The notes: generated from the letters alone by a model not told the origin. Counted from the stretch's first letter, positions 15,590-35,218 are shown. The stretch is 48,053 bases of DNA from Candidatus Omnitrophota bacterium (GCA_023248155.1 JAHFFE010000009.1:1-48053); one strand, 5' to 3'. Translations and numbers: made by a program.

Positions 15590-15647
15590 TCTTATGCACA
15601 CCAACGGTACCAGGTTCCAAGAGTATAGGCAAAAAGGAGGATAGTTC

Positions 15648-19819: not shown

Positions 19820-19839
19820 CGTATATACTTGATATATAC
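19800..19839 (+). promoter_or_regulatory. TA operon promoter with an overlapping operator
   Basis: TTGACA-N18-TATACT; inverted repeat GTATATA-cttga-TATATAC (19821-19839) covers the -10. Confidence 0.65.
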
Positions 19840-19844
19840 AACTA

Positions 19845-20144
19845 ATGACTGATCTTCCGGATTTATCTGGGGTAGAAGGTTTCGACTGGGACCGTGGGAA
19901 TGTTCAAAAGAACTGGGCGCGGCATCGGGTGGCTTTTCATGAATGCGAAGAGGTCTTTTTCCATGAGCCCGTTCTGGTTCCCGACCCGGATCATTCCGGT
20001 TCGGAACAGCGCTGGTTCGCGTTCGGACGCACGGCTAAAGGACGCTTGCTTACTATTGTATTTACCATCAGAAAGAACACCCTCCGGGTGATATCTGCCC
20101 GGGACATGAGCCGGAAGGAGCGAGGAAAATATGATCAACTTTAA
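19845..20144 (+). CDS. brnT: BrnT-family (DUF497) type II toxin
   Basis: FDWDRGNVQKNWARH, HSGSEQRW, RVISARDMSRKER...Y. Confidence 0.9.
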   Translation: MTDLPDLSGVEGFDWDRGNVQKNWARHRVAFHECEEVFFHEPVLVPDPDHSGSEQRWFAFGRTAKGRLLTIVFTIRKNTLRVISARDMSRKERGKYDQL

Positions 20145-20415
20145 GAAGATACCGGCATTCAAGAACGAAGACGCCGAACGAAAGTTCTGGGCTACCCACG
20201 ACGCAACCGATTATGTCGATTGGAGAAAAGCGCAGCGGGTTCGATTTCCAAACTTAAAACCGACGCTGAGAACCATCTCCATCCGGCTTCCTGAGCATTT
20301 GATCGGCGATCTCAAGGCGCTGGCGAATGAGCGGGATATCCCCTACCAAGCGCTCCTGAAACAATTCCTCGCTGAGCGCGTAGAACGGGAGTGGCGCCAC
20401 CACAGAGCCGCCTAA
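20131..20415 (+). CDS. BrnA/CopG-like ribbon-helix-helix antitoxin
   Basis: KIPAFKNEDAERKFWATHD, TISIRL, IPYQALLK; overlaps the toxin gene. Confidence 0.88.
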   Translation: MINFKKIPAFKNEDAERKFWATHDATDYVDWRKAQRVRFPNLKPTLRTISIRLPEHLIGDLKALANERDIPYQALLKQFLAERVEREWRHHRAA

Positions 20416-20428
20416 GCTCCCTTGACAA
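20413..20428 (+). repeat. 16-bp direct repeat, right copy
   Basis: TAAGCTCCCTTGACAA, beginning at the antitoxin stop codon. Confidence 0.85.
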
Positions 20429-20437
20429 CTAGCCGCC

Positions 20438-20463
20438 CTGGATTCCCGCCTTCGCGGGAATGA
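20438..20463. repeat. REP-like hairpin (ATTCCC-N8-GGGAAT, dRS3-like architecture)
   Basis: CTGGATTCCCGCCTTCGCGGGAATGA. Confidence 0.75.
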
Positions 20464-20475
20464 AATCTTAAGAGT

Positions 20476-20508
20476 AATTGTCATCCCCGAAATTACTTGT
20501 CGGGGATC
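20476..20508. repeat. REP-like hairpin, paralog of 7132-7164
   Basis: AATTGTCATCCCCGA-N9-TCGGGGATC. Confidence 0.75.
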
Positions 20509-20525
20509 TATTTTCGCCCTCCCCC

Positions 20526-20554
20526 TTGTTTTTACCCTCTCCATTGGGTAAGCT
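20526..20554 (+). promoter_or_regulatory. Possible promoter of the kinase array
   Basis: TTGTTT-N17-TAAGCT, 9 nt before ATG 20564; no clear Shine-Dalgarno. Confidence 0.4.
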
Positions 20555-20563
20555 TCAAAGAGC

Positions 20564-22180
20564 ATGCCAGCTACTCCCTTTTCACCCTCAGTTTTATACG
20601 CATTTACCTGCGGCCTAACCTGTGTTCTGGCCGCTTCATTAGCCCTGCTTGTCCTCTGGAAAAACGCGCGATCGCCGGTAGCCCGCCGATGGGCCACGAT
20701 GTGCTTTTTGGTCGCGGCCTGGGCGTTCTGGAATACGATTTCCCTGCTTGATCAAACTGCGGCCGGATCTTTAAAATACCTGCGCCTGGCCGACGCGTTC
20801 GCGCTATTCATCCCGGTTACTTTTCTGCATTTTGCCATGCGTTTTGCGAACCGGTTCAAGGCCGGCCTGCTCAAAATAAGCTACCTGATAACCGGCGCGC
20901 TCGCGCTGACCGTGGGCACCCCGTTGTTCGTGGCGGAAGGCCAGAAAAAATTCGGCATCTGGTTTGAAGTGGGCGGCCCCACTTTTTTAGCGTTTGCCAT
21001 CCTGTTCGTGCTGCTGCCGGCGTATGGCATTTATCTGATTTACCAAACAGCCCGCGCGGCCTCGGATAAAACGAAACAGGCTCAATTTTTCAGCTTATTT
21101 TTCGCCTGCGCGCTGGGTTTTGGCGGCGGGTTCATGTGGTTTCTTCCGGCGTTTAACATTAATATCCCGCCCATCGGCGGCCATTTAATCGCGCTCTACT
21201 GCGTGATTGTGCTGTATGCCATTGTCCGGTACCGGTTTCTGGATATCCAGCTGGTCATCCGGCGCAGTCTGGTTTATTCCATCTTGATCACGCTGTTGAC
21301 CACTTCTTATTTCGGGCTGGTTTATTTGATCGAGCGGATTTTTCAAAACTCCATCGGTTATAAATCGGCGTGGATTTCCATTCTGTCGTTCGGATTGATG
21401 GCGCTGGTGTTCCAGCCGCTTAAATCGGCCATCCAAAAACTGGTCGACTGGTTAGTTTTCCGCTCAACGCAGGAAGAACTGGGGAAACGGATGGAACTGC
21501 TCGAACAGCAGGCGTTGCTAAATGAGAAACTCAAAGCGGTTTCTACACTGGCCGCCGGCATGGCGCATGAAATTAAAAATCCGCTGACGATATTGCAGAC
21601 CTACGCGCAGTTCATCCCCGAGAAACGCCACGACGACGCTTTCATTACCACACTGCAAGAGACGCTCTCAAGCGAAACCCGCAGAATTCAGCAGATCGTT
21701 CAGGATTTATTAGACTTCGCCAAACCAAAACCCCCGCGAATGCAGCCGGTTGATTTAGCGGGGCTTATTCAATCGACGACGAATTTATTTTCGGGCGAGT
21801 TTATTAAGCGCAAGGTCAACTGCGAGGTTCATTGTGATTTGAACGGCGCCCTTCTGCAAGCCGACCGGGACCAGTTGCGCCAGGTTCTTATTAATCTGGT
21901 TCAGAATGCCCTGGACGCCATGCCGGCCGGCGGCAAGTTATCCATTCAGGGCACGGTTATACCCGACGAAGCAGTCGTTCTGAAAATCTCCGATACCGGC
22001 GAAGGAATCCCGAAACATCTCCTGCCCAAAATCTTTGACCCATTCGTAACCGGCAAAGAAACCGGCAACGGCTTAGGGCTAACGATGGTCTACTCCATTG
22101 TTCAGGCACACCGGGGTACCATTCAGGTAGATAGCACGCCCGAGCAAGGCACCACATTTACTCTCAGGTTCCCGCTATGA
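20564..22180 (+). CDS. Sensor histidine kinase HK1 (HisKA_7TM-like membrane sensor, HisKA, HATPase)
   Basis: Multi-TM N-terminus; AAGMAHEIKNPL, INLVQNALDAM, DTGEGI, FDPF, GNGLGL. Confidence 0.92.
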   Translation: MPATPFSPSVLYAFTCGLTCVLAASLALLVLWKNARSPVARRWATMCFLVAAWAFWNTISLLDQTAAGSLKYLRLADAFALFIPVTFLHFAMRFANRFKAGLLKISYLITGALALTVGTPLFVAEGQKKFGIWFEVGGPTFLAFAILFVLLPAYGIYLIYQTARAASDKTKQAQFFSLFFACALGFGGGFMWFLPAFNINIPPIGGHLIALYCVIVLYAIVRYRFLDIQLVIRRSLVYSILITLLTTSYFGLVYLIERIFQNSIGYKSAWISILSFGLMALVFQPLKSAIQKLVDWLVFRSTQEELGKRMELLEQQALLNEKLKAVSTLAAGMAHEIKNPLTILQTYAQFIPEKRHDDAFITTLQETLSSETRRIQQIVQDLLDFAKPKPPRMQPVDLAGLIQSTTNLFSGEFIKRKVNCEVHCDLNGALLQADRDQLRQVLINLVQNALDAMPAGGKLSIQGTVIPDEAVVLKISDTGEGIPKHLLPKIFDPFVTGKETGNGLGLTMVYSIVQAHRGTIQVDSTPEQGTTFTLRFPL

Positions 22181-23808
22181 CACTCTTTCAATATCACTTG
22201 ATTGGGCTTGCTCTGACATCGACATCCCTGGTGGGATTTGGAATTTTCCTGCTGCTGAAAAATCCGGAGCGCCCATTAAATCGTTCCATGTCGCTCTATT
22301 GCTTCAGCGTTGCTTGGTGGAGTGGCTGGGAATTTTTTGCGCTTCAAATGCCTACCCGAGAATTAGCGTTTCTACTTATGCGAATAGAATACTTCGGGGT
22401 AGCATACATCCCTACTTTGTTTTGCACTACAGCATCCTATCTTCTAAATCAATCTGCCCGAACTCGAAAGAAGGTACTTATTCCTCTTTATGTAATGAGC
22501 ACCCTTACATTAATTCCCGCTGTATTTTTCCCTACGAAACAATTCCTCTGGGTGAGCAGCGGCCCCGTTTTTTACCTGCCGATCTGGGGGCAAGCCGGCA
22601 TGTATTACTGGATGTTTATGGTCTTTTTCTTTTCAGCCATCCTCACCGCCCATTTCCTGATGATTCCTCCCTGGCTTAAAGCAAGCGGCACAGAAAAAAC
22701 TCGGCTTACCTTATTTATTTTTGGATCCATTTTGGCTTACATGGGTGGCTGTCCCGAATTTGCCATGAATTATGGGGTTCGGATCGGCTGGCTGAATCCT
22801 TTTGGTTTGTACGCTTTTCCTATTTATATCGGCATACTTACCTATGCTGTTGTACAACACCAATTTTTCGACATTCACATTGTGATCCGCAAAAGCGTTG
22901 TTTATTCCCTTCTCGTTACCCTATTGACTGCTGGATACTTTGGCATAGTTTATTTCATTGAGCACGCCTTCCAATCAACGCTTGGATATCATTCTATCTG
23001 GATCTCGCTGGCCGCGTTCGCTCTAATGACTTTGAGTTTTCAATCTCTTAAAACCATAATTCAGAATGCAGTGGATCACCTAGTGTTTGGGGTTTCTCAG
23101 GAAGAACTTGCCAAGAGAATGGAACGGCTTGAAGCTCAGGCCATGCAGGCCGAGAAATTCAAAGCCGTTTCTACGCTAGCCGCCGGCATGGCACACGAAA
23201 TCAAAAACCCGCTAACGATTTTAAAAACCTACAACGAATTTCTTCCCAAAAAGCATGCGGACAAACAGTTCATTGCCGAAATGCACGAAGCGCTGGCCGC
23301 CGAAACGAGCCGGATGCAGCAAATCATTCAGGACTTGCTGGAATTCTCAAAACCAAAATTATCCAAACAGCGCCCTGTTCATCTGGAAGAAATCATTCAT
23401 TCCACAACCAACTTGTTCTCGGCTGAATTCATCAAGCGCAAGATTAATTGCCAAACCAACTGCTCGCTCAATGGCGCTGCCATTCAAGCCGATCCGGACC
23501 AAATCCGGCAGATATTGATCAATCTCGTCCAAAACGCCCTAGACGCAATGCCTGAAGGCGGGTCTTTGTCGGTGTCGGCAGAAACAACCCCGGACAACCA
23601 TGTCGAGTTAAAAATTACCGATACCGGCTGCGGCATTCCAAAAGAACTGCTGCCAAAAATATTCGACCCATTCGTAACCGGCAAAGAGACCGGCAACGGA
23701 CTGGGCTTAACGATGGTCTACTCCATCGTGCAGGCGCACCGCGGCACCATTCAGGCGGATAGTGCTCCCGGCCAAGGCACCACATTCACTCTCCGGTTCC
23801 CGCTATGA
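22177..23808 (+). CDS. Sensor histidine kinase HK2 (7TM-like sensor)
   Basis: Same H/N/G1/F/G2 boxes; ATGA overlap with HK1. Confidence 0.92.
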   Translation: MTLFQYHLIGLALTSTSLVGFGIFLLLKNPERPLNRSMSLYCFSVAWWSGWEFFALQMPTRELAFLLMRIEYFGVAYIPTLFCTTASYLLNQSARTRKKVLIPLYVMSTLTLIPAVFFPTKQFLWVSSGPVFYLPIWGQAGMYYWMFMVFFFSAILTAHFLMIPPWLKASGTEKTRLTLFIFGSILAYMGGCPEFAMNYGVRIGWLNPFGLYAFPIYIGILTYAVVQHQFFDIHIVIRKSVVYSLLVTLLTAGYFGIVYFIEHAFQSTLGYHSIWISLAAFALMTLSFQSLKTIIQNAVDHLVFGVSQEELAKRMERLEAQAMQAEKFKAVSTLAAGMAHEIKNPLTILKTYNEFLPKKHADKQFIAEMHEALAAETSRMQQIIQDLLEFSKPKLSKQRPVHLEEIIHSTTNLFSAEFIKRKINCQTNCSLNGAAIQADPDQIRQILINLVQNALDAMPEGGSLSVSAETTPDNHVELKITDTGCGIPKELLPKIFDPFVTGKETGNGLGLTMVYSIVQAHRGTIQADSAPGQGTTFTLRFPL

Positions 23809-25424
23809 CACTCCTCCAACATCATGTTTTGTCGCTTAGCTTAACGGCCGTAACCACATTTGCCTTGGGGTTGTTGGTGTTTTTAGCGGAACCCAAAAAA
23901 CGACTGAACCAGGTTTTTGGGTTTTATTCACTGGTGATTTCGTGGTGGGCATTTACTGAGGTTTTTATCGTAAGTGCCCATAATTTCCAAACTGCCAATT
24001 TGTTTGCCTACTTATCATGGCCAGCTATTATTTTTATCGCGCCGGCCTTTTTCCACACAACACTGCTACTGACTTCAGATAAAAACCTTTTGTCAGCAAA
24101 AATCCTTCGAACCGTTTATGTTTTTGGTTTCGTGTTTTTGATCCTGCTTTTCTGCGGACTGGTAATTGATGCTCCGAGGCCTATCGGACATACTCGGTAT
24201 TTCAGCAAACTTACTCCCATAGGCATATCATTGCCGGTTTTATTTGTGATTCTTGTAAATATCAGCATATGGAAACTCTGGAAAGCATATCGGAAAGAAT
24301 CTGGTTCTCGAAAAATTGAATTAAAATATCTGCTCTGGGGATCCGTTATCGGCTATATTGGCGGCACTCCAGACTGGTTACATTCGCTAGACATCTACAT
24401 ACCACCACTGACACCCCTTGGAATCTACGGAGTGCCACTTTATTCCATCGCCATGACTTACGCGGTACTTCACCACCAGCTTTTCGATTTCAACTTAGTG
24501 ATCAGAAAAAGTCTCGCCTACTCAATTTTAATTACAATACTAACCATCAGTTATTTCGGTTGTGTTTACTTTGCGGAACAATTCTTCAGAATTACTTTGG
24601 GTTATTCATCTGTCTGGGTCTCATTAATCGCTTTTGCGGTAATGGCCTTACTATTTCAGCCGCTTAAATCTGCTATTCAAAGATTGGTCGACTACCTAGT
24701 CTTCGGGGTTTCTCAGGAAGAACTCGCCAAACGGATGGAACGGCTGGAAGCCCAGGCCATGCAAACCGAGAAATTTAAGGCCGTCTCTACGCTGGCCGCC
24801 GGCATGGCGCATGAAATCAAGAACCCGCTCACCATCATACAAACTTACGCGCAGTACCTAACCGAACGGCACGACGACCCAACCTTCATCAAAGAATGCC
24901 AGGAATCCATCTTGTCCGAAACTAAACGGATGAAAAACATCACGAAAGATTTAATGAGTTTCGCCAAGCCGAGCGATACCAAGCGCATTCCTGTAGAACT
25001 GGAAGAGTTGGTGCGGTCTACTGTTTTATTGCTGGCTCAAAACTTGTCGCAACAGAAGATCGGTTGGAATGTAGCTTGCGAACCGGAAACCACCACCGTT
25101 ATTCAGGCCGATCCGGACCAAATCCGGCAAATTCTAATTAACCTTATCCAAAACGCGGCCGATGCCATGCCCAACGGCGGAACGGTTTCTGTTTCGACCA
25201 AAAGCACCGATGAACACGCCTACATTGTAATTACCGATACCGGCTGTGGCATTCCGCCAGAAATACTACCTAAAATCTTCGACCCATTTGTAACCACTAA
25301 GCCTGATGGTAACGGCCTGGGGCTAACAATGGTTTATTCAATGGTGCAGGCCAACTGTGGAACCATTCAGGTGGATAGCGCTCCCGGACAAGGCACGACC
25401 TTCACCATTAGGTTTGCACGATGA
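23805..25424 (+). CDS. Sensor histidine kinase HK3 (7TM-like sensor)
   Basis: Same boxes; ATGA overlap with HK2. Confidence 0.92.
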   Translation: MTLLQHHVLSLSLTAVTTFALGLLVFLAEPKKRLNQVFGFYSLVISWWAFTEVFIVSAHNFQTANLFAYLSWPAIIFIAPAFFHTTLLLTSDKNLLSAKILRTVYVFGFVFLILLFCGLVIDAPRPIGHTRYFSKLTPIGISLPVLFVILVNISIWKLWKAYRKESGSRKIELKYLLWGSVIGYIGGTPDWLHSLDIYIPPLTPLGIYGVPLYSIAMTYAVLHHQLFDFNLVIRKSLAYSILITILTISYFGCVYFAEQFFRITLGYSSVWVSLIAFAVMALLFQPLKSAIQRLVDYLVFGVSQEELAKRMERLEAQAMQTEKFKAVSTLAAGMAHEIKNPLTIIQTYAQYLTERHDDPTFIKECQESILSETKRMKNITKDLMSFAKPSDTKRIPVELEELVRSTVLLLAQNLSQQKIGWNVACEPETTTVIQADPDQIRQILINLIQNAADAMPNGGTVSVSTKSTDEHAYIVITDTGCGIPPEILPKIFDPFVTTKPDGNGLGLTMVYSMVQANCGTIQVDSAPGQGTTFTIRFAR

Positions 25425-27025
25425 CGCTACTACAGCTATATACATTCTCAAACACGCTTAACGCCTTTGTGAGTACTTCTCTTGGACTATTTGTCTTCCT
25501 AAAAAATCCTAACTCAAAAATAAACCGTCTTTGGGTATGGATGAGTTTGTGTATTGGAATCTGGTCTGGACTTCTTGCCCTTTCATTTGTTTCCCATGAC
25601 TACATCTTCATCTTGTGGATAATACGGGTGGCTAACACAAGCGCCCTATTTATTCCGCTTCTTTACCTCCATTTCATAGCCGCATATCTTAACAAATCAA
25701 TCAATCTTAGACCCCTCTATGTTATCAACATCTTATTGGCATGCACAGGATGGACTCCTCTTTTTGTAATAACAGTTGCCGCAAAAAGATGTTTCCCCTA
25801 TTACAACACAGCAGGTTCTGTTTATTTCTTGTTTCCACTTCTATATACAGTAGAAACATTTTGGGCATTTTATCTATTATCGAAATCAATCAAAGATTCA
25901 ACCGGAGTACGAAGAAAAACCTTCTCCCTTATACTCGCTTCCGGCGTTGTGGGATTTGTTTTCGGAGCGACTTCGTTCCCCTTATGCTACACCGACAGCT
26001 TTGAACCTTTTGGCCTTCATTTCGTTTGGCTCTATTGCTTATTTGTTACCTGGGCCATATTCCGATATCAATTATTTGATATTCATCTAATCATCCGTAA
26101 AAGCCTCATCTACTCATTGCTGATCACTCTGCTAACTATTGGATATTTTGGCGTTATTTATGGAGTTGAGCGCCTGTTCCAAAACAGTTTAGGTTATCGA
26201 TCACTAGGGATTTCGCTGACTGCTTTCGCCGTAATGGCGGTAGCTTTTCAGCCCCTTAAAACAAGCATTCAAAGATTAGTCGACTGGCTGGTGTTCCGCT
26301 CAACGCAGGAAGAGTTGGGGAAACGGATGGAATTACTCGAACAGCAGGCCCTGCAAAACGAGAAACTCAAAGCGGTTTCTACTATGGCCGCCGGCATGGC
26401 GCACGAAATTAAAAATCCGCTGACAATACTGCAAACCTACGCCCAGTTTGTTACCGAAAAGCATACCGATCCTGCCTTCGCCAAAGAGCTGCAAGAGACC
26501 CTCTCTACAGAAACCAGGCGGATTCAAGGAATTGTTCAAGACTTGTTGGACTTCGCCAAACCAAAAGCGCCGCATATGCAGCCAGTAGATTTGGCCCAGT
26601 TAATACAATCGACAGTAAATCTGTTCTCGGGAGAGTTTCTCAAGCATGAAATCAATTGCAGTGTGGACTGTAATTTTAATAGCGCCCTTCTTCAAGCCGA
26701 TCCCGACCAGATGCGCCAAATACTCATTAATCTTATCCAAAATGCTATTGATGCCACGCCAAGCGGGGGCAAAATCTCCATAGAAGGGTCTACGCATAAC
26801 AAAGAGGTTGTATTAAAAATTTCCGATACCGGTAAGGGGATCCCGAAACACCTCTTACCCAAAATCTTTGATCCATTCGTGACGGGCAAAGAGACCGGCA
26901 ACGGACTAGGACTTACAATGGTCTACTCCATTGTGCAGGCGCATCACGCCACCATTCAGGTGGATAGCGCTCCCGGACAAGGCACGACCTTTACTGTTAG
27001 ATTACCCACAATTGAAGCTGATTGA
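25421..27025 (+). CDS. Sensor histidine kinase HK4 (7TM-like sensor)
   Basis: Same boxes; ATGA overlap with HK3. Confidence 0.92.
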   Translation: MTLLQLYTFSNTLNAFVSTSLGLFVFLKNPNSKINRLWVWMSLCIGIWSGLLALSFVSHDYIFILWIIRVANTSALFIPLLYLHFIAAYLNKSINLRPLYVINILLACTGWTPLFVITVAAKRCFPYYNTAGSVYFLFPLLYTVETFWAFYLLSKSIKDSTGVRRKTFSLILASGVVGFVFGATSFPLCYTDSFEPFGLHFVWLYCLFVTWAIFRYQLFDIHLIIRKSLIYSLLITLLTIGYFGVIYGVERLFQNSLGYRSLGISLTAFAVMAVAFQPLKTSIQRLVDWLVFRSTQEELGKRMELLEQQALQNEKLKAVSTMAAGMAHEIKNPLTILQTYAQFVTEKHTDPAFAKELQETLSTETRRIQGIVQDLLDFAKPKAPHMQPVDLAQLIQSTVNLFSGEFLKHEINCSVDCNFNSALLQADPDQMRQILINLIQNAIDATPSGGKISIEGSTHNKEVVLKISDTGKGIPKHLLPKIFDPFVTGKETGNGLGLTMVYSIVQAHHATIQVDSAPGQGTTFTVRLPTIEAD

Positions 27026-27050
27026 CATGGTTTATTCTGCGACTTACACT
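27022..27050 (+). promoter_or_regulatory. Near-consensus sigma70 promoter of the ketosynthase-methyltransferase-HK5 unit
   Basis: TTGACA-N17-TACACT overlapping the HK4 stop codon. Confidence 0.7.
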
Positions 27051-27057
27051 GTATTTA

Positions 27058-27138
27058 ATGGTGTTTTTGTTTTTGAGTTATTATTTCATTAGGACTAACT
27101 ATTACGGGTGGACTGATAAAAAGGTATGCACAATATAA
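27058..27138 (+). CDS. Possible leaderless 26-aa peptide MVFLFLSYYFIRTNYYGWTDKKVCTI
   Basis: ATG lies 7 nt after the -10, the same spacing as other leaderless-looking genes here; no homology support. Confidence 0.3.
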   Translation: MVFLFLSYYFIRTNYYGWTDKKVCTI

Positions 27139-27239
27139 ATTAGAAATTTCTCAGTTGGTTATTTTCACGAGCTCATTTTAAGCAACGTCTACAATTTTAT
27201 CGTAGGCGTTTTTTATTTTTATCAAAAACTGAGGTAACT

Positions 27240-28511
27240 ATGACCCAGAACAAACTCCCCCATACAATGGATATAGTAATAACTGGGCTCGGCGTAGTAT
27301 CTCCAAATGGCATAGGCAAGGATGCTTTCTGGAAAGCACTCCATTCCGGTCATACTGGCATCAAAAGAATTCAGCGGTTTGATCCATCTCCTTTTCCAAC
27401 CCAAATTGCAGGAGAAGTCGCGGATTTTACTCCTGATCCTTTTATGGAACCAAAAGAATCGAAGAGAGCGGACCGATCTGTTCAATTTATTATTGCCTCA
27501 ACACAAATGGCCCTTCAAGATAGTTGCATTAATCTTAAGAAAATGGATAGCTCTAGGGTTGGCGTACTTGCTGGAACATCCGTAGGTGGGCAAGGATGGG
27601 CACTGGATCAATTTTATACATTTATGCAGCATGGATACAGGAAAATGAATCCGTTTACAACCGCCGCAACTTTTCCAAATGCATCATCGGCACAAATTTC
27701 TCTCAAATTTGGACTTCGTGGCCCCAGCGATACTATTTCTTCAGGATGCGCATCTAGTTCATCTGCAATCTGCTTTGCCACAGAACTAATCCGTACTGGG
27801 AAAGCTGACATAATGATCGTTGGTGGAACCGAAAGTTTACTATACCCTCCTATTTTTGCTGCATATTGTGCTTCTCGAATTATGTCCAAGAGAAACAATC
27901 TCCCGATTCAAGCACCATCACCTTTTGACAAAAATCGGGATGGCATTGTATTAGGTGAAGGATCCGCTGTCCTTATACTAGAAAATCTAGAACACGCAAA
28001 AAAAAGATCGGCGCCTATTTACGCCAAAATCTCCGGATGGGGAAGTAGCTGTGGGACAACAGAAAAACATCATGACGATAGCGGGAAAACTCCATCGGCA
28101 ACTGCTCTGGCTATGAAACTAGCCCTGGAAAATTCCATGTTATCTCCAAATAATATTTCTTATATAAAAGCACATGGTAGCGGTCAGGTAGATGTAGATT
28201 TAATGGAAACAATGGCTATTAAAGATGTATTCGGAGAATACGCATATAAAATCCCCATTAGCTCTATAAAATCTTCTATTGGCCATACGGTTGGGGCTTC
28301 AGGTGCAATTGAAACAGTCGCTGCAACTCTTGCCATGAATTATAACGAAGCTCCGCCTACATTAAACCTCCACACCCCAGATCCTCAATGTGACCTTGAC
28401 TATGTACCAAATCAAGCTCGCGGAGTTCCAATGACTTCAGCGTTAGTAAATATCATAGGGTTTGGAGGAAAAAACGTGTCCATTGTTTTAACGAAATATA
28501 CTAATCATTAG
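27240..28511 (+). CDS. Stand-alone FabF-like beta-ketoacyl synthase (KAS II fold)
   Basis: IVITGLGVVSPNG, SSGCASS (Cys), KAHGSG (His), KSSIGHTVGASG (His), GFGG; GAGG Shine-Dalgarno; no ACP gene adjacent. Confidence 0.9.
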   Translation: MTQNKLPHTMDIVITGLGVVSPNGIGKDAFWKALHSGHTGIKRIQRFDPSPFPTQIAGEVADFTPDPFMEPKESKRADRSVQFIIASTQMALQDSCINLKKMDSSRVGVLAGTSVGGQGWALDQFYTFMQHGYRKMNPFTTAATFPNASSAQISLKFGLRGPSDTISSGCASSSSAICFATELIRTGKADIMIVGGTESLLYPPIFAAYCASRIMSKRNNLPIQAPSPFDKNRDGIVLGEGSAVLILENLEHAKKRSAPIYAKISGWGSSCGTTEKHHDDSGKTPSATALAMKLALENSMLSPNNISYIKAHGSGQVDVDLMETMAIKDVFGEYAYKIPISSIKSSIGHTVGASGAIETVAATLAMNYNEAPPTLNLHTPDPQCDLDYVPNQARGVPMTSALVNIIGFGGKNVSIVLTKYTNH

Positions 28512-28517
28512 ATATTA

Positions 28518-29207
28518 ATGTTACGTTTCTTTATCATCCTTGGGAATTTGGGAGTGCCCGGACTCGCGTTACTACTAGGTATAATTCGGCCTAAAGGATG
28601 GCTGAGTTGGTTCTTTGTTCTCTTTGTTTTAATACATTCTGTTGCACGGGTATGGGAAACATTTTACACATCCAAAGAAAAACGTCGCCTGGAGTTTCAT
28701 GGGGATTGGCCATTAGTAGCCGTAACTTCTGCTTATATAATTTTGTGTTTTGTCATTATATTAGAGTTTTTTTTCATGAGCCGATCTCCGCGTTTTTTGA
28801 ATTTCCTTGTCGGATGCATTTTGTATGGATTAGCATTTCGACTACGCTGGTGGGGAATGGCCTCCCTTGGAAAACAGTGGGCAATTCATGCCATTGGCCC
28901 AAAAAAGATTCGCAAAATTCGCTTAATCCAGCTAGGTCCATATAAATTTATCCGCCACCCAATATATTTGGGCATAGCCATTGAGACCATTTCTATTTCT
29001 ATTATGCCTTCTTGTTATCTCTCCCTGATTTTTTCCATAACCGTTTGCATTCCGCTTATCATCCTAAGAGCCCTTTTAGAAGAAAGATCTTCTGCGAGAA
29101 GATTCGGACAACTGCACCAAAGATACACGGAAAAAATCCCGATGTTTCTCCCTGTAACTAAGAAAACCTTCCTTTCCTTTTTAAGATCGATTATCGCCAA
29201 TAAATGA
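28518..29207 (+). CDS. ICMT/PEMT-family integral membrane methyltransferase
   Basis: LRWWGMASLGKQW, GPYKFIRHPIYLG, RALLEER motifs. Confidence 0.88.
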   Translation: MLRFFIILGNLGVPGLALLLGIIRPKGWLSWFFVLFVLIHSVARVWETFYTSKEKRRLEFHGDWPLVAVTSAYIILCFVIILEFFFMSRSPRFLNFLVGCILYGLAFRLRWWGMASLGKQWAIHAIGPKKIRKIRLIQLGPYKFIRHPIYLGIAIETISISIMPSCYLSLIFSITVCIPLIILRALLEERSSARRFGQLHQRYTEKIPMFLPVTKKTFLSFLRSIIANK

Positions 29208-31456
29208 CACCCGCCTTTCATTATCAGCTCTCTGCATTTTTTACATTCGTTGTAAACGCATTTTTAGTCTGCTGGATATTGAAAAAGAATGGCTTGGCTT
29301 CTGGGCTTTCAAGACGATTCGTGTTTTATTGTTCGGCAATTGCTGCTTGGGCAATTTTTGTCTGGATATGTACTATTTCTAAAAATTATGCTGTGGCTTA
29401 TTTTTTTGGGCGATTGACTCACATTGCGGCAGCTTTAATTCCTGTTTTTTTCCTCCAGTTCGTATTACTGTTTCTCGGAACTCATCAGAAGCCCTTTGAA
29501 AAAAGATCCCTGCTAATAGCCTATGCGGTAGAGTTATTTTTTATTACCCTTCTTGTTATCAAGCCAAATTTAATACTAGGACAACTCAGTCATAAGCTAT
29601 CCTTCCCCTGGTTTCCAGACGCTGGTATTTTATACACCCCGTGGATGGCTTCATTTTTTATTGTGGTATCCTACACCCATCTTCTTATTTTATTAGCCCT
29701 ATTTAAGACACATGAACAACGCCGAAAACAACTGCGGTTCTTTTTTACTGGCAATCTTATCGGATACATAGGTGGGATTGGGTGTTTTCTACCGGTTTAT
29801 AGCCTGCCAATCTTCCCTTTTCCATACGGTGCATACGGTGTTGTATTATTTACTCTGGTAACAACATACGCCATTATTCAATATCGTTTCATGGATGTTA
29901 ATCTGGCCATTACCCGCACAGCGGTATTTATGGCCGTATATGCTGCTATTCTTGGACTTCCGCTCTTTGGAGCATTAACCTATCAAGACCTACTCGAGAA
30001 AAACCTGGGTCATCGATGGTGGGTTTATCTCCTAGTAGGATACGCTGGGTTAACAACAGCGGCACATTATATTAATCTTTACTTTCAACGCAGGGCGGAG
30101 GACCGCCTGCTGGTAGAGCAACGGCGATATCAAAGTGTGCTTCGGCAGGCATCTCAGGGCATGGTCTCGATTAAAGATCTGGATAAATTACTTCGCTTGA
30201 TTGTTCATCTACTCACACAAAAAGTGCGTATTAAACACGCGGCTGTTTATTTATGGGAACCACAGGTAAAAAAATTCGTATTGAGCGCTTCCCGGCAATG
30301 GCCCGTTAAAGAAGCAGCGCCTTCTTTTCCTGAGGATCATCCCCTGGTTGAGTATATCCACTGGAACCGAAAAGCGATTGTATCGGAAGAATTGCAAATG
30401 CAGGTACGTAGTGGCGAAAAAAATCTACAGTCAGTAGTTTCTTCCATGCGGGTTTTACAAGCGGCAGTATTGGTACCCAGCTTTACGGAAGACCGGTGCG
30501 AGGGGTTTTTACTGCTGGGCGATAAAATTTCAGACAAATTATTCACGCCGGATGACTTGCAGGTATTTGAAGTGCTGGCCTCACAGGCGGCGCTGGCTAT
30601 TCAGAACGCGCAGTTTTACGAGGAACTGAAGCGCACGCAAACCGACCTGTTCCAGACGGCAAAAATGGCTTCTTTGGGGCATATGGCCGGCGGCATGAGC
30701 CATCAGATTAATAACCGGTTCCATGTGCTGACGATTCTGGCGGGCACTTTAAAGTCGGTGATGAAAGATTCGGACCCGTCGCAATTGCCGGGCGAACGGC
30801 TGAAAGAACTGTGGGGCAAGGCGGTGGAAACGCTGGGCAAGCTGGAAGACAACGCGGTGCGCGGCGGCGACATTGTGAAAACGCTGCTGAGGTTCTCGCG
30901 GCCGGCCGGAGAATATAAAGCGGTGACGATGGCGCAGATTTTGGCGACGGCCAAGGAAGTGTCGCAGTTCCGTATCAACATCAGCCTGGTGGACATTATC
31001 GAGCAGGTGCCCGGCGATATTCCGCCGGTGCGCGGCGATTTAAACCAGTTGGCCGATTCGTGCTTTAACTTGCTGACCAACGCCTACGACGCGATCCAGA
31101 AAAAAGGAACGATGATTCAAAGCGGGCAGATCTCCCCTTCTCCAAATGATCCGGTGCCGTTCCGCGGGAAAATAGTGGTGCGCGTCTATATGGAAAAGAA
31201 AGACGATCAGCCAACCAAAGTGGTTCTGGAAATTCAGGACAACGGCACCGGCATGATGGCCTCGGAACTGGACAGTTTGTTTATTCCGTTTTTCACCACC
31301 AAAGCGACCGCGCAAAAAGGGACCGGGCTGGGGTTGTATGTAATCCAGCGGATCGTAGAGCAGCATGGCGGGTCGATTAAAGCGGCATCCAAATATGGCG
31401 CGGGAACCACTTTTATCATGCGCCTGCCTGTATTTGAAGGCGGCGTTCCAGCCTGA
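29204..31456 (+). CDS. Sensor histidine kinase HK5 (7TM-like sensor, GAF, HisKA, HATPase)
   Basis: Multi-TM N-terminus; GAF end FTPDDLQVFEVLASQAALAIQNA; atypical H-box GMSHQINNR; DNGTG, FFTTK, GTGLGL; ATGA overlap with the methyltransferase gene. Confidence 0.92.
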   Translation: MTPAFHYQLSAFFTFVVNAFLVCWILKKNGLASGLSRRFVFYCSAIAAWAIFVWICTISKNYAVAYFFGRLTHIAAALIPVFFLQFVLLFLGTHQKPFEKRSLLIAYAVELFFITLLVIKPNLILGQLSHKLSFPWFPDAGILYTPWMASFFIVVSYTHLLILLALFKTHEQRRKQLRFFFTGNLIGYIGGIGCFLPVYSLPIFPFPYGAYGVVLFTLVTTYAIIQYRFMDVNLAITRTAVFMAVYAAILGLPLFGALTYQDLLEKNLGHRWWVYLLVGYAGLTTAAHYINLYFQRRAEDRLLVEQRRYQSVLRQASQGMVSIKDLDKLLRLIVHLLTQKVRIKHAAVYLWEPQVKKFVLSASRQWPVKEAAPSFPEDHPLVEYIHWNRKAIVSEELQMQVRSGEKNLQSVVSSMRVLQAAVLVPSFTEDRCEGFLLLGDKISDKLFTPDDLQVFEVLASQAALAIQNAQFYEELKRTQTDLFQTAKMASLGHMAGGMSHQINNRFHVLTILAGTLKSVMKDSDPSQLPGERLKELWGKAVETLGKLEDNAVRGGDIVKTLLRFSRPAGEYKAVTMAQILATAKEVSQFRINISLVDIIEQVPGDIPPVRGDLNQLADSCFNLLTNAYDAIQKKGTMIQSGQISPSPNDPVPFRGKIVVRVYMEKKDDQPTKVVLEIQDNGTGMMASELDSLFIPFFTTKATAQKGTGLGLYVIQRIVEQHGGSIKAASKYGAGTTFIMRLPVFEGGVPA

Positions 31457-31474
31457 GCACCGCCAGTTTTATTT

Positions 31475-32776
31475 TTACCGCCGGCGGCGAAAAGAAAACT
31501 GCGTTTCCACTTTAACAAGATGGCCCCCCATGGCAAGAACCGGATAGGCCAAAAAATTGATGGGGCCGCCCTGAAAACTCTGATCAAACATCAGGTCGCG
31601 CCCGCGGCTGAATTCGATTCGATTGGCCGGATGATGCCCGAAATAATAGGTCGCCAGACTTGAGTATTTATCGGCCTCTGAAACATCGACGGGCCACCAC
31701 TTGCCTTCCGCGTAAAACTCAGCCCAGCAATGGTAACCGTCAATGCCCCCGTCATTCCGCTCAGACGGAATTGCCGCGCCGACGGCGAAACGGGCCGGAA
31801 TACCGGCCGCCCGGGCCAGCCCGATAAAGTAGGCGTGGAAATCGCTGCAGTTGCCTGTCCGTAAATTGCACGCGTAGACGGCGTCACCCTTGCCCCAGCC
31901 GCTGCCGTATTTCATGTAACGCATACGGTCAATCACATGATCGTACAGAGCCCGCGCCCGGACTAAATCCCCCGTTTTTCCGCGAACAACCCCCGCGGCA
32001 ATCGAATGGAACTCATCGCGATCAGGAACGAGGCATTCCGGCTTCAGGTATTTTTCAGTGCCGGCGGGCTCTGCCGCGTAGGCGGCTTTCTCGTGGCGAC
32101 GGACGCGATAGCGGATGTCGATGGACTTTCCGCTGTCTGGTTTGCCGATCTTAAAGAGAAAAGCTTTATTTCCGTACGCGCGTTCCTGCAAAACGCGGGG
32201 TTCTTTCGGGGATTCCATGCGGAGAAGCTCAACCGTTTGAAACGCGTCCGACGCCGGAAACGGCAGCCACAAGTAAGCACGATCGTTAACTTCAGGAATC
32301 CGGGTTTGGTATCGAAACTCAAATTCGTCCTCCCCCTCGACGACGCCGAGCAGTTTGGGCGGGGCCCCCTGAACAGGAACGCGCTTCCAGCTCTGATCGG
32401 CGTCCTGTTCCCAGGTGTAGAAAGGAATGCCGTTGAGTTTATGGAGGGTGGTTTCGGTAACAGTCATGGCGCCCGGCCTGCCCCGCATGAAAAAATCGAC
32501 ATCGTAGACATCGCCGGAGAGATCGACCAGATCCACGCAGGCAAAATGGCGGCCATGTCCGAGGGAAGCAAGGTATTCGGTGTGGACGCGAACGAGCTTG
32601 AAATCGTACGATTTCCCGCCGGAGGAGATCTTGAAATAGCCGGAGGAGCGCGAAGCTTCGGCGATGTAGCGCTCGATCCCGGCCTGGATCTGAGGAATGG
32701 TTGCCGGAGAGCCGGGCTGGAACTGAGGCGCTGCGCGCCATGCCAGCCCTCCGGTCATCACCACCGCGCAGGCCAA
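31475..32776 (-). CDS. Secreted transglutaminase-like domain protein
   Basis: GNCSDFH, YHCWAEF and PVD form the Cys-His-Asp triad; start codon uncertain. Confidence 0.85.
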   Translation of the reverse strand: MACAVVMTGGLAWRAAPQFQPGSPATIPQIQAGIERYIAEASRSSGYFKISSGGKSYDFKLVRVHTEYLASLGHGRHFACVDLVDLSGDVYDVDFFMRGRPGAMTVTETTLHKLNGIPFYTWEQDADQSWKRVPVQGAPPKLLGVVEGEDEFEFRYQTRIPEVNDRAYLWLPFPASDAFQTVELLRMESPKEPRVLQERAYGNKAFLFKIGKPDSGKSIDIRYRVRRHEKAAYAAEPAGTEKYLKPECLVPDRDEFHSIAAGVVRGKTGDLVRARALYDHVIDRMRYMKYGSGWGKGDAVYACNLRTGNCSDFHAYFIGLARAAGIPARFAVGAAIPSERNDGGIDGYHCWAEFYAEGKWWPVDVSEADKYSSLATYYFGHHPANRIEFSRGRDLMFDQSFQGGPINFLAYPVLAMGGHLVKVETQFSFRRRR

Positions 32777-32807
32777 CGCGCAGACAGCAACCCTCTTCAG
32801 ACAAAGA

Positions 32808-33068
32808 TTATTTTGGATGCTCGGTCGGATGCTCCGAATGCTTGGCTGCGGGCTGCTCCGAAGACTGCTCCGTTGCCAGCTGCTCTGAAGACTGTTCCAT
32901 TGCCAGCTGCTCTGAAGACTGCTCCGTTGCCGGCTGCTTGGTTACCTCGGCTGCGGGCTGCTCCGAAGACTTCGGCGCCGGTTTGGCTGAAGGATGTTCC
33001 GCCATGCCGGGGGTAGCGATCAAACAAACAACGGCCACGCCCAATAAAATAGTCGTTATTTTTCTCAT
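32808..33068 (-). CDS. Small secreted low-complexity protein with SSEQ and EHP repeats
   Basis: GGAG Shine-Dalgarno, signal peptide ending GMA, 9-aa repeats. Confidence 0.75.
   Translation of the reverse strand: MRKITTILLGVAVVCLIATPGMAEHPSAKPAPKSSEQPAAEVTKQPATEQSSEQLAMEQSSEQLATEQSSEQPAAKHSEHPTEHPK
32852..32938. repeat. 27-bp coding tandem repeat, three copies
   Basis: GCTGCTCYGAAGACTGYTCCRTTGCCR at 32852, 32879 and 32906. Confidence 0.9.
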
Positions 33069-33130
33069 CTTTTTCTCCCAGTTAAAAAACCGTTATCCGA
33101 TGAAACCTTCTCACGCATCAACCTGATGAT

Positions 33131-33159
33131 ACTCTACCGCAAGAACAATGCATGGTCAA
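33131..33159 (-). promoter_or_regulatory. Possible promoter of the small protein and transglutaminase genes
   Basis: Minus strand TTGACC-N17-TAGAGT. Confidence 0.45.
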
Positions 33160-33180
33160 TTTTAACGGCACCGGTCGCGC

Positions 33181-33209
33181 TGGACAAGCCGCGGGCGCGG
33201 GGGGATAAT
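33181..33209 (+). promoter_or_regulatory. Likely leaderless promoter of the receiver pair
   Basis: TGGACA-N17-GATAAT, 6 nt before GTG 33216. Confidence 0.5.
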
Positions 33210-33215
33210 AAGTCT

Positions 33216-33587
33216 GTGCCGAGTTTGCTGATTATCGACGATGAACCGGAAATTCTGGAAACGACCAAGTGGGCGTTTGAGCTGGCCGGTTTCGATGTCA
33301 GCACGGCCGCCAGCGGCGAGGAAGCCCTTCCCCGCGCAGAAGAATTCCATCCGGAAGTTCTTCTGATTGATTACAAACTGCCGCAGATGTCCGGGCTGGA
33401 TGTGCTGCGGGAGACCAAATTGAAAAACCCCGAAGTGATCGCGATCATGATTACCGGATTAACCCACCAAACCACGCAAATTGAAGAGGAATCGGCGCGG
33501 CTGGGCGCCAGCGGGTTCCTGCACAAGCCGCTGCAGATGGAAGTTGTGCTTCAGATCGTTCGAAGTCATTTGAAACGAGGTGGCTGA
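33216..33587 (+). CDS. Single-domain response regulator (receiver only)
   Basis: LIIDDE, LIDYKLP, ITG, LHKP. Start moved to GTG 33216. Confidence 0.9.
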   Translation: MPSLLIIDDEPEILETTKWAFELAGFDVSTAASGEEALPRAEEFHPEVLLIDYKLPQMSGLDVLRETKLKNPEVIAIMITGLTHQTTQIEEESARLGASGFLHKPLQMEVVLQIVRSHLKRGG

Positions 33588-33949
33588 TGGCGTCGCTGTT
33601 GATCGTCGAAGATGAGCTGGAAGTGGCTGATTCACTGAAAGATTATTTCAGCCTGCACGGGGTTGAAGTTTTTATCGCCAACACCGGCGAACAGGGCCTG
33701 GAAATTTTAGCTGAGAAGAAACCGTCCGTGGTTTTGCTCGATATGAAGCTGGGATCCGGCATCAGCGGATTGGAATTTTTGCGCAAGGCCAAGGCGGCCA
33801 AGAGCACCGCGCAGATTATCGTCGTGACGGCCGTGGACGACCAGAATGTTTCGACGATGGCCCGGGGATTTGGCGCCGCGGATTACATGACGAAGCCGCT
33901 GACGATTCCGGATGTGGAACGGGTCGTTCTTTCCCGCCTGAAGAAGTAA
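33587..33949 (+). CDS. Single-domain response regulator (receiver only)
   Basis: LIVEDE, LLDMKL, VTA, MTKP; GAGG Shine-Dalgarno, TGATG overlap. Confidence 0.9.
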   Translation: MASLLIVEDELEVADSLKDYFSLHGVEVFIANTGEQGLEILAEKKPSVVLLDMKLGSGISGLEFLRKAKAAKSTAQIIVVTAVDDQNVSTMARGFGAADYMTKPLTIPDVERVVLSRLKK

Positions 33950-33955
33950 CCTGCT

Positions 33956-35218
33956 TTAAAAGTATTCCTGCAGAAGTTTTTGAACGCGCTCAATCGGGCG
34001 CATCCAGGGTGAAATATGCGCTACTGAGGGAAGAATCGCTTTTTTGCGCATGCTGTAGCGCAGAAGGCCGATCGGCGTTAAATCCTGCATGCGCAGGGAC
34101 AAGCCGGGGTTGAGCTCAGCCTCTTTCAACGTGCCCAAGCGTACCGGCATATTCATTAAACTCTCGGCCATCTCCAAAAACCCGTCGAGGCGGGCCATCG
34201 AACCAACCACCACGATGCCCGACGATGAGTCGAGGAACAGCGGATTGGCGACTAAACGGCGCTGAATACGGGTCAGCAGTTCTTTGGCGCGCGCGCGAAC
34301 GACAGCAACCACTTCTTCCTGCGGAAACGAACGGGCGCCGGCCCCCTGGCCTGTTTTGAGCGGCTTTAATGCCCATTGGCCGGAGACTTCCTGCGCCAGC
34401 GGATCGTTGCCGATCGGCGACGGCTCTTCGAGACTGCGCACCTGATCGAGCAAAAACTCGGCTGAAACGCGCGGAATTTTAAAGGTACGGCTGATGCCGT
34501 CGAGCAAATCTTCCCACCCGCCCGGAATCAGGTAGGTGTCGCGGATTTGAGAATTGTCGAACAAAACGATTTCGGTATAGGAATCGCCGATCCGGATGAG
34601 CGTTACGCCCAGGTCGCGGTCGAGATCGGTTAAAACCGCTTCGGCAGTGCCGAGAGCGCCCAGCACAAAACCGTCGGTTTCAAGGCCGGCGCGGTGCAGA
34701 ACGCGCGAGAAATTCTGAACGGTCGAGTTAAGCGCCGTCACCAGATGAAGGTCGACCGAGAGTTTCTTGCCGGCCAGGCCGATCGGGTTGCGAACGCCGG
34801 ACTGCCCGTCGACGGAATAACCGCGCTCGAATGAATGCAATATCTGCCGGTCGTATTCGAGAGAAAGCGAGCGGCAAGTGGTCACGGCCCGCTCGACATC
34901 CTGGCGGGAGATGCCGACGGCCGGATCAATCGACGGAACAGTGGCGGAAGCGTTGAAGCTTTTTAAGTGGTTGGCGGGAAAAACAACGGTGGCGCGCGTC
35001 AGTTTTCCGGAAATGGTTTGTTCGGCCTGGCGCACCAGCCGCGCCAGCGCGTCGGCGCATTCAATCGGGTCGCTCAACCCTTCCCTTTCAAATCCCTGCG
35101 CCGGCACCGACTCAATCGCCTGCACGGAGAGCCGTCCGGAATCCTGCGCCTGGCCTGCCGCCAGCACGAATTGTTTGGGGCCCAGTTCAAGCCCGACAAT
35201 CCAGGGTGTTTTTTTCAT
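33956..35218 (-). CDS. ftsA: Cell division protein FtsA (divergent)
   Basis: Follows ftsQ; VDGQSGVRNPIGLAG, AEAVLT, PVRLG and a C-terminal amphipathic helix. Confidence 0.88.
   Translation of the reverse strand: MKKTPWIVGLELGPKQFVLAAGQAQDSGRLSVQAIESVPAQGFEREGLSDPIECADALARLVRQAEQTISGKLTRATVVFPANHLKSFNASATVPSIDPAVGISRQDVERAVTTCRSLSLEYDRQILHSFERGYSVDGQSGVRNPIGLAGKKLSVDLHLVTALNSTVQNFSRVLHRAGLETDGFVLGALGTAEAVLTDLDRDLGVTLIRIGDSYTEIVLFDNSQIRDTYLIPGGWEDLLDGISRTFKIPRVSAEFLLDQVRSLEEPSPIGNDPLAQEVSGQWALKPLKTGQGAGARSFPQEEVVAVVRARAKELLTRIQRRLVANPLFLDSSSGIVVVGSMARLDGFLEMAESLMNMPVRLGTLKEAELNPGLSLRMQDLTPIGLLRYSMRKKAILPSVAHISPWMRPIERVQKLLQEYF

Follow-up and report, generated by a model that had tools for sequence, protein, structure and literature searches.

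A candidate make-and-sense locus in a Candidatus Omnitrophota genome: a second FabF-like ketosynthase, an ICMT-family methyltransferase and a mosaic seven-transmembrane histidine kinase

The window analysed here, a stretch of 48,053 nucleotides from a Candidatus Omnitrophota bacterium (GCA_023248155.1, JAHFFE010000009.1), is contig C34 of a genome of 1.9 Mb in 37 contigs, which is 98.5% complete, and its DNA is present in groundwater metagenomes of one study (four DNA runs). Between the gene of a 3,109 amino acid (aa) RHS-repeat protein and the dcw cell-division cluster, the plus strand carries in this order the genes of four seven-transmembrane (7TM) sensor histidine kinases (HK1 to HK4), a 214-bp gap, a FabF-like ketosynthase (KS), an integral-membrane methyltransferase of the ICMT family (ICMT) and a further 7TM kinase, HK5. 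Downstream of HK5 follow a transglutaminase-like gene on the minus strand and two receiver genes, RR1 and RR2. The subject of this work is the KS-ICMT-HK5 group, a candidate unit for making and sensing a methylated acyl compound, and in particular the HK5 kinase, whose sensor and transmitter parts appear to differ in origin.

An earlier note on this DNA had listed four 7TM kinases, KS, ICMT, HK5 and two receivers, and this gene content and its coordinates hold, the four kinase genes standing in tandem. The ATGA overlap by which it described ICMT as translationally coupled to HK5 is real, and the same overlap is found at the HK1/HK2, HK2/HK3 and HK3/HK4 junctions; the 214-bp gap upstream of KS is the sole sizeable gap between HK1 and HK5. 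It was also right that no acyl carrier protein (ACP) or fab genes are adjacent, none being present in the window, and the sole ACP gene of the genome is on another contig. The note had further assigned to KS-ICMT a promoter of their own. The TTGACA-N17-TACACT site is indeed there, but its role as the KS-ICMT promoter is only plausible, because promoter-like sites in the region are no commoner than in shuffled sequence (22 against 17.8 +/- 4.6 expected). The two receivers are present downstream of HK5 as described, with the transglutaminase-like gene, which the note does not mention, in between. The start of RR1 at 33126 is probably too early; the receiver domain begins at residue 35 and the orthologue in G011, a genome of the same family, has 121 aa, so that the true start is probably near 33216. 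Overlapping the transglutaminase-like gene on the opposite strand is a plus-strand open reading frame (ORF) of 336 aa (32006-33016) without a family match, which is probably not a gene. As to the kinases, HK3 scored 19.0 bits for HisKA_7TM (Pfam PF16927, gathering cut-off 28.6 bits) in one Pfam scan and 31.6 bits, above the cut-off, in a six-frame search.

Table. Features of the locus, with positions counted from the first base of the window
Feature	Position	Strand	Description
HK1	20564..22180	+	538-aa 7TM sensor histidine kinase; HisKA_7TM 60.8 bits, HisKA, HATPase_c; host-like G+C content at third codon positions (GC3) of 0.64
HK2	22177..23808	+	543-aa 7TM kinase; HisKA_7TM 58.2 bits, HisKA, HATPase_c; ATGA overlap with HK1
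HK3	23805..25424	+	539-aa 7TM kinase; HisKA_7TM, HisKA, HATPase_c
HK4	25421..27025	+	534-aa 7TM kinase; HisKA_7TM 43.5 bits, HisKA, HATPase_c; stop codon overlaps the -35-like hexamer
Sigma-70-like site TTGACA-N17-TACACT	27022..27050	+	Match to consensus; left edge of the low-GC3 block
Compositionally foreign block	27026..30400		Covers the gap, KS, ICMT and roughly codons 1-400 of HK5; GC3 0.25-0.45; right edge approximate
KS	27240..28511	+	423-aa FabF-like ketosynthase, second copy; ketoacyl-synt N and C domains
ICMT	28518..29207	+	229-aa ICMT-family integral-membrane methyltransferase; PF04140
HK5, whole gene	29204..31456	+	HisKA_7TM 54.4 bits, GAF, HATPase_c
HK5 7TM sensor, residues 1-200	29204..29803	+	Part travelling with ICMT cassettes
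HK5 linker, GAF, dimerisation and phosphotransfer domain (His in SHQINN box), ATPase	29804..31456	+	Chassis in common with the resident family
Transglutaminase-like gene	31475..32776	-	PF01841, E 4e-24; none at this place in G011
RR1	33126..33587	+	Single-domain receiver
RR2	33587..33949	+	Single-domain receiver; one-base overlap with RR1

KS, ICMT and the sensor half of HK5 are compositionally foreign. Among the 1,249 genes of the genome with at least 150 aa, for which GC3 was computed (mean 0.627, standard deviation 0.068), KS has the second lowest value (0.307, against 0.675 in the housekeeping FabF) and ICMT the eighth lowest (0.387). Within HK5, values of 0.35-0.45 extend to about residue 400 and then give way to 0.57-0.76, the rise falling between residues 351 and 451. 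The assembly is not at fault for this mosaic structure, since a contig of 3,727 bases from the X1 run, possibly the source of the assembly, covers the block (26962-30688) and contigs of a second sample (X2) are identical to the window across its junctions, at 26387-27275 (HK4/KS) and 28129-29773 (KS/ICMT/HK5). Groundwater reads over 18000-37000 give a depth of about 5x and short contigs, whose joints are short-sided and lie within paralogous kinase motifs, so that they yield no readable form with another cassette or with a deletion.

The last 300 residues of HK5 match at E <= 1e-20 in 17 of the 20 genomes of the family, its own included, and the orthologues in 11 other family genomes are 58-73% identical over this part. 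In G018 and G011 the HK5 orthologue adjoins ftsA, as in the window, and in G011 it is directly followed by orthologues of RR1 (56%) and RR2 (57%); RR2 orthologues adjoin ftsA in G011 (57%) and G006 (75%). Compared with the syntenic orthologues of G018 and G011, HK5 has 24-26% identity in residues 1-200 and 50-90% in the remainder. The comparison with the kinases of L020 and L017, two distant loci with thioesterase-ICMT cassettes, gives 34-52% for residues 1-250 and 12-46% for the remainder. A tree of the 7TM part places the window with L015, L017, L020 and L097 (support 100/100), and a constraint that joins it to the four family orthologues at the syntenic site is worse by 68 log-likelihood units and is rejected (approximately unbiased (AU) test, p 6e-81). 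The tree of the C-terminal 300 residues gives a clade of nine family kinases (96/93), with the window beside G018 and G011 (100/99); here it is the grouping of the window with L017, L020 and L097 that is rejected when forced (AU p 5e-8). The two trees confirm that HK5 is a mosaic, its sensor sharing a history with kinases of distant ICMT cassettes and its GAF-transmitter part with the syntenic kinases of its own family. A sensor which travels together with the enzymes is what would be predicted for a matched pair of maker and sensor.

Other enzyme sets occupy the syntenic site in related genomes. Upstream of the HK5 orthologue, G018 and G017 carry a methyltransferase fused to an alpha-oxoamine synthase, which scores 373-383 bits on the BioF model, 368-370 on that for serine palmitoyltransferase and 209-212 on CqsA (NF005526, cut-off 428), all of them below cut-off. 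In G002 and G011 the site holds a START/polyketide-cyclase protein, a PigE-like acyl-ACP reductase and a class III aminotransferase. Further HK5-type kinases of the family are preceded by a thioesterase with a PilZ domain and a stand-alone 7TM protein, by a PilZ protein and an ICMT-like enzyme, by a KS and an ICMT-like enzyme (in G011, where the kinase is followed by a receiver and a double receiver) or by a set with a FabH-like KS. The 7TM tree pairs the sensors across genera by cassette (G017 with G018, G002 with G011, and G018b with the KS-ICMT-like locus of G011, each with support of at least 100/99); in the C-terminal tree G002 and G017, which belong to one genus, are nearest neighbours. 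Identity between the kinases of these two genomes is 24-32% in the first 200 residues, compared with 82-98% in residues 400-745. These comparisons indicate that the sensor type follows the type of cassette and not the genome. Over 15 loci, ICMT similarity correlates with similarity of the 7TM part (Mantel r 0.48, p 0.002), the corresponding value for the C-terminal part of the same kinase being r 0.16 (p 0.10). The stand-alone HisKA_7TM protein mentioned above has 230-247 aa and lacks a kinase part; it lies between the PilZ-thioesterase and the HK5-type kinase in L224 (9320-10063, genome G019) and L228 (genome G103).

The genome carries two genes of the KAS II type. The second one, to which KS is 42% identical, sits in a fabD-acpP-fabF-SDR cluster (SDR, short-chain dehydrogenase/reductase) on a different contig, and its acpP is the only PP-binding gene of the genome. 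A housekeeping placement does not apply to KS itself, as the acpP/fab neighbourhood belongs to the other copy and the two fall in separate clades. KS stays below the FabF equivalog model TIGR03150 (436.8 bits, cut-off 493.75) and passes the looser subfamily model NF005589 (427.1 bits, cut-off 387); the catalytic triad Cys170-His312-His349 is kept and aligns with the genome's FabF and with 1j3n. The phylogeny comprised 65 sequences, 27 from the genomes of relatives, 10 linked to cassettes, 27 database matches and the genome's own FabF. The latter forms with 14 family FabFs a clade of 15 housekeeping enzymes (support 100), and KS lies in a separate clade of 12 (support 99) together with the cassette KS of G011 and database matches which are 50-60% identical. 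Nine fixed differences, several of them adjoining catalytic residues, set the clade of KS apart from 32 housekeeping FabFs, including the residue before the catalytic Cys and two after the first His. Among the 40 relatives a KS match is found in 17 of the 19 family genomes, and only G011 has a second copy near KS (49%). The cassette-linked KSs do not form a single clade, the fusions of a receiver to KS (REC-KS) and the KSs of L021, L106 and G017 falling elsewhere in the tree, which suggests either repeated recruitment of KSs to cassettes or too great a divergence among them.

ICMT scores 42.4 bits on PF04140 (cut-off 24), and Pfam places the enzyme in ICMT/PEMT only; on NF040696, the model for the protein-S-isoprenylcysteine O-methyltransferase, which acts on prenylcysteine, it reaches 38.5 bits where 160 are needed. 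The residues R146, H147, P148, Y150, E188 and E189 of the RHPxY...EE cofactor motif are invariant in an alignment of 30 sequences, and the alignment gives a full-length match to 4a2n, a solved structure of an archaeal ICMT (E 1e-18). There are 80 homologues at E <= 2e-29 (33-59% identity), nearly all metagenomic, the few named ones being from Omnitrophica. No close orthologue was found in the 40 relatives (best match 34% identity over a part), so the cassette is not a trait of the lineage.

The neighbours of ICMT were compared at all true homologues from two scans of sequence collections, nine from genomes and 12 from metagenomes. In two of these 21 loci the sequence ends at the gene, and L096 and L104 nearly duplicate L016 and L021, respectively. 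In 15 of the other 19 loci a 7TM kinase is encoded directly after ICMT; in three more a single gene lies between, for an SDR in L021 and L104 and for a second fusion of ICMT and methyltransferase in L097, and in L099 a glycosyltransferase-like gene follows in place of the kinase. The gene before ICMT varies and was an acyl-chain enzyme in all loci examined. It is a KS in the window, G011, L019, L021/L104 and L022 (the last with ACP and LuxE), a REC-KS fusion in L016, L096 and L098, and a pair of hotdog thioesterases in L015, L017, L020, L095 and L097. In L018 (9237-10004) and L100-L103 it is a 255-aa protein, found also at L230 and L238, which has no match in Pfam or NCBIfam; the ESM Atlas groups it with acetoacetate decarboxylases (score 0.97, TM 0.88), and such an enzyme would fit beta-keto acid chemistry. 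The remaining loci have an SDR/epimerase-type reductase of the thioester-reductase type. A single receiver and a double receiver are usually found downstream. PilZ domains are fused to the ICMT enzyme in L019 and to a KS in P0141 and P0152. Pairs of KS and an ICMT-like enzyme occur among the 19 other family genomes in G011 and G017 only. The ICMT of the window thus belongs to a distinct family, and its neighbourhoods tie this family to kinases. A complex prediction for ICMT and the 7TM part of HK5, entered as alignments, gave a score of 0.00, which weighs neither way.

For a wider survey the linker-GAF part of HK5 was searched in the genomes of the class and was matched in 98 of 151. From 57 best places the window itself, seven in its family, one inside a stretch already taken and eight others (partial frames, places at contig starts and second places in a sampled genome) were removed, leaving 40 loci from 38 genomes. 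With up to five upstream genes on the same strand considered per locus, BLAST to a reference set finds an acyl-type enzyme at 31 of the 40 HK5-type loci, or at 29 if SDR and aminotransferase are taken off the list, compared with a background of 8% (4% with the stricter list) for five-gene windows drawn from the ORFs of this genome. Upstream neighbours without a label in this search include CrtI-like amine oxidases, a thioester reductase, a FabA-like dehydratase and an aldehyde dehydrogenase. The survey indicates that the adjacency of enzymes and kinase is more than chance. At L250 (3943-5226, genome G142) the place which elsewhere holds biosynthetic enzymes is taken by a FadL/TodX-type outer-membrane channel, with one 198-aa gene of no assigned family between it and the kinase. 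The points which the earlier note had left to genome comparison have thus come out on its side: KS is not the only FabF, a second one adjoining acpP; the phylogeny puts it outside the housekeeping clade; the association of ICMT, an acyl enzyme and an HK5-type kinase is kept well beyond this genome; and the gene-neighbourhood survey it proposed finds acyl enzymes upstream of most such kinases in the class.

HisKA_7TM proteins number seven in the genome, five of them at this locus; the two others (contigs C27 and C20) have no adjoining acyl enzymes. HK1-4 have no synthase of their own. Their sensors are as divergent as the earlier note had described, being 23-32% identical among themselves over the 7TM part, against 58-78% over the catalytic part; a second comparison gives 21-28% for the sensors and 58-80% for the transmitters. 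Compared with the orthologues at the syntenic locus of G018 and G002, which belong to other genera, the sensors are 38-59% identical, with 59% for HK2 against G018 and 48-51% for HK3 against both, and the transmitters 41-59%, thus closer within their own genome; the HK3 transmitter, for instance, is closer to those of HK1, HK2 and HK4. This pattern argues that HK1-4 are old paralogues representing old sensor types, their transmitters having since been homogenised or re-paired in this genome. The likeness of the transmitters, whose dimerisation and phosphotransfer parts are nearly identical, suggests a shared downstream partner, so that HK1-4 probably feed a common pathway. That they detect variants from kin, prey or host is speculation. 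The HK1/HK2 (22165-22185) and HK2/HK3 (23793-23813) junctions are identical in the eight bases before ATGA, in ATGA and in the next five bases, and the last 200 bases of HK1, HK2 and HK4 have 78-86% DNA identity; such repeats could be sites for gene conversion or sensor exchange. On contig C27 (215102-217198), a 698-aa protein aligns with residues 31-478 of HK5 at 26% identity; its gene follows a double receiver, and the protein ends in an HD-type domain, not in a kinase core.

Some further features of the window lie outside this group of genes. The dcw cluster (within 33956-48053) ends at ftsA, and the usual place of ftsZ holds RR2-RR1-HK5; the same kinase or receiver genes adjoin ftsA in G011, G018 and G006. 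No FtsZ (PF00091) was found in the 98.5%-complete genome at E <= 1e-5, the control search having found it in 13 of 14 reference genomes. Directly upstream of HK1 is a BrnT/BrnA-type toxin-antitoxin pair (19845-20415). The summed contig depth of the four groundwater runs over 19902-20535 is 64-140, compared with roughly 2-10 in most other bins, which means that close copies of that stretch are common in the groundwater community. The 3,109-aa protein (4071-13400) combines RHS repeats with beta-propeller-like parts. Next to it, at 13342-17234, three genes with GC3 values of 0.355, 0.406 and 0.435, among the 25 lowest of the 1,249, form a second foreign-looking block of the window; they encode a PD40 beta-propeller protein, a TPR protein and a 528-aa protein without a family match.

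We give somewhat better than even chances to KS-ICMT-HK5 being a make-and-sense module, in which the two enzymes produce a methylated acyl compound and the kinase detects it. The DNA between about 27.0 and 30.4 kb would then be a single imported unit which was set onto a resident kinase. KS would draw on the only ACP pool of the cell and make a particular acyl chain, probably a 3-oxo or 3-hydroxy one. After its release the chain would be methylated by ICMT, most simply on the carboxyl, to give a lipid like a fatty acid methyl ester, which may partition into the membrane and bind the 7TM domain of HK5, and HK5 would in turn phosphorylate the single-domain receivers RR1 and RR2. A compound that serves as a signal from cell to cell and one that feeds back on its producer only would be indistinguishable by sequence.

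Several observations weigh against this module. The window encodes no enzyme for release, such as a thioesterase, and among best matches across the genome there is no homologue of the thioesterases found in cassettes, so that the module lacks an evident step to take the KS product off the ACP; the sensor clade nearest to HK5 has thioesterases, not KS, before ICMT. In the ICMT family the methylated atom may be O, N or S, on a range of lipids, so the carboxyl methyl ester is a guess. In L016 the ICMT is similar (0.45) and the 7TM part dissimilar (0.15). Physical linkage alone would give the same incongruent trees, and sensor and enzymes could have travelled together in this way if recombination ended in the conserved linker/GAF region. 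The survey drew its reference set from cassettes that adjoin kinases of this type, and it covered related genomes. The enzymes fused to receiver or PilZ domains elsewhere mark such enzymes as outputs of signalling, and would be expected no less in a regulated lipid pathway than in a feedback loop.

The last point leads to an explanation to which we give a rather low probability, that of a lipid-remodelling or homeostasis circuit in which HK5 senses a membrane property or an incoming lipid of host or prey, and KS and ICMT are the effectors, their compound not being a signal. Receiver and PilZ domains on related cassette enzymes would mark them as targets, that is outputs, of signalling; the receivers lack DNA-binding outputs, so that control may be post-translational; FabF-type enzymes set chain length in membrane lipids, and the FadL-type uptake channel of L250 replaces the enzymes before one HK5-type kinase. 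Yet a general membrane sensor needs no exchange together with the enzymes, while at one site the sensor type is seen to follow the enzyme type, and the oxoamine synthase, the acyl-ACP reductase with aminotransferase, the thioesterases with methyltransferase and the acetoacetate decarboxylase-like protein would make small released molecules and not bulk changes of phospholipids. Somewhat less probable again is that the product is a bioactive or structural lipid, for antimicrobial action, adhesion or predation, with the kinase serving autoregulation or self-protection only, as NisK does for nisin, and communication not being the purpose. The host lineage would suit it. All six named FtsA homologues are from Candidatus Omnitrophota/Omnitrophica (44-59% identity), a group reported as ultra-small, predatory and rich in giant genes (bioRxiv 10.1101/2023.11.21.568195, in excerpt). 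Many HK5-linked cassettes also resemble small type II fatty acid or polyketide synthase sets, with KS, a KS-like partner, ACP, FabA-like dehydratase, CrtI-like oxidases and thioester reductase; the cassette of the window, however, consists of two enzymes without export, immunity or tailoring genes, and the kinase would still have to sense the product, so that this explanation departs from the make-and-sense module only in the purpose of the compound. Finally, a spare FabF and a generic membrane methyltransferase may have landed in the kinase array by chance. The foreign nature of the block and the lack of a close ICMT orthologue in the relatives agree with this, but we regard it as very improbable given the kinase directly after ICMT in 15 of 19 loci (18 of 19 counting one intervening gene), the order KS-methyltransferase-kinase-receiver repeated in G011, the excess of acyl enzymes upstream of HK5-type kinases over background and the ATGA overlap of ICMT with HK5.

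A broader reading, possible but on the doubtful side, would extend the make-and-sense module to a large, undescribed family of interchangeable lipid "dialects" in Omnitrophota and some Elusimicrobia and Thermodesulfobacteriota, serving ultra-small, host-dependent or predatory bacteria in the recognition of kin, prey or host. Each dialect would consist of an acyl-signal synthase set and a matching 7TM sensor, recombined onto the GAF-kinase chassis beside the cell-division genes, with synthesis gated post-translationally by receiver or PilZ domains; the orphan kinases HK1-4 would listen to the dialects of other cells and feed one shared pathway. To our knowledge, next to nothing is known of signalling between cells in the Omnitrophota, which are uncultured and ultra-small. 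Were this reading true, these would be their first candidate signal systems; a FabF-type KS with an ICMT-type methyltransferase would be a new chemistry, and HisKA_7TM a new receptor type, among lipid autoinducer systems; and the cassette logic of the peptide pherotypes (agr, com) would also operate for lipid signals. The comparative pattern yields pairs of enzyme set and sensor which can be tested, and makes the question of HisKA_7TM ligands approachable.

By analogy, the nearest working precedent would be the quorum-sensing pair PhcB-PhcS of Ralstonia, in which PhcB belongs to a soluble class of methyltransferases. According to PMC8578825, methyl 3-hydroxymyristate is the product of the methyltransferase, whose gene is followed by that of the sensing kinase and then by two for receivers without a DNA-binding domain; the signal is methyl 3-hydroxymyristate or -palmitate, and the sequences of synthase and sensor divide the strains by signal type. 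As far as that description goes, the window shares with phcB-phcS-phcR-phcQ the order of methyltransferase, membrane kinase and receivers without a DNA-binding domain. The window differs in its integral-membrane ICMT, its dedicated KS and its HisKA_7TM-GAF sensor, and no PhcA-type regulator is known for it.

In the pherotype (specificity) loci agr of Staphylococcus and comQXPA of Bacillus, the variable unit comprises the signal-making genes and the sensor half of the kinase. The likeness to the present locus is that synthase genes and sensor half vary as a unit, at one site, against a conserved transmitter; the difference is that agr and com use ribosomal peptides, whereas the variable block of the window holds KS and ICMT only and no peptide precursor gene. 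CqsA-CqsS of Vibrio and LqsA-LqsS of Legionella use an acyl-derived alpha-hydroxyketone signal, with the synthase gene beside that of a polytopic membrane kinase. The syntenic cassette of G018 and G017 has an alpha-oxoamine synthase of the same superfamily, but the window has none, and the enzyme of G018 and G017 is fused to a methyltransferase and lies below the CqsA cut-off, scoring higher on BioF and serine palmitoyltransferase. In the diffusible signal factor (DSF) system of Xanthomonas (RpfF-RpfC-RpfG), the signal comes from the fatty-acid synthesis pool and is sensed by the membrane part of the kinase. Some related cassettes end in REC-HD regulators (L021/L104, L227, L255) in a similar manner, and the PilZ domains on cassette enzymes suggest a tie to cyclic di-GMP; the window, unlike DSF loci, has no crotonase-type synthase and its receivers have no HD domain.

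The earlier note had compared KS-ICMT with BpsA-BpsB and SrsA-SrsB, in which a type III polyketide synthase is encoded beside an ICMT-family methyltransferase acting on its lipid product. The condensing enzyme next to such a methyltransferase is indeed common to both, but the locus is not a member of this group: KS matches PF00109/PF02801 and FabF models only and no type III polyketide synthase, a FabF-type KAS II makes no pyrone or resorcinol ring alone, and the Bps and Srs systems have no kinase. Alkylresorcinol chemistry of that type was rejected for KS, and PhcB-PhcS and CqsA-CqsS would be the better working analogues. The note knew of no described system of FabF-type enzyme, ICMT and 7TM kinase, and a full-text literature search, without supplementary tables of gene neighbourhoods, likewise found no paper in which a cassette with ICMT or FabF is linked to such a kinase. 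Two papers name HisKA_7TM (PMC5847659, PMC6944256), and only as a sensor domain of unknown ligand. A signal synthase encoded beside a membrane kinase is a known kind of arrangement; its realisation with these parts, and the swapping of lipid cassettes, would be new.

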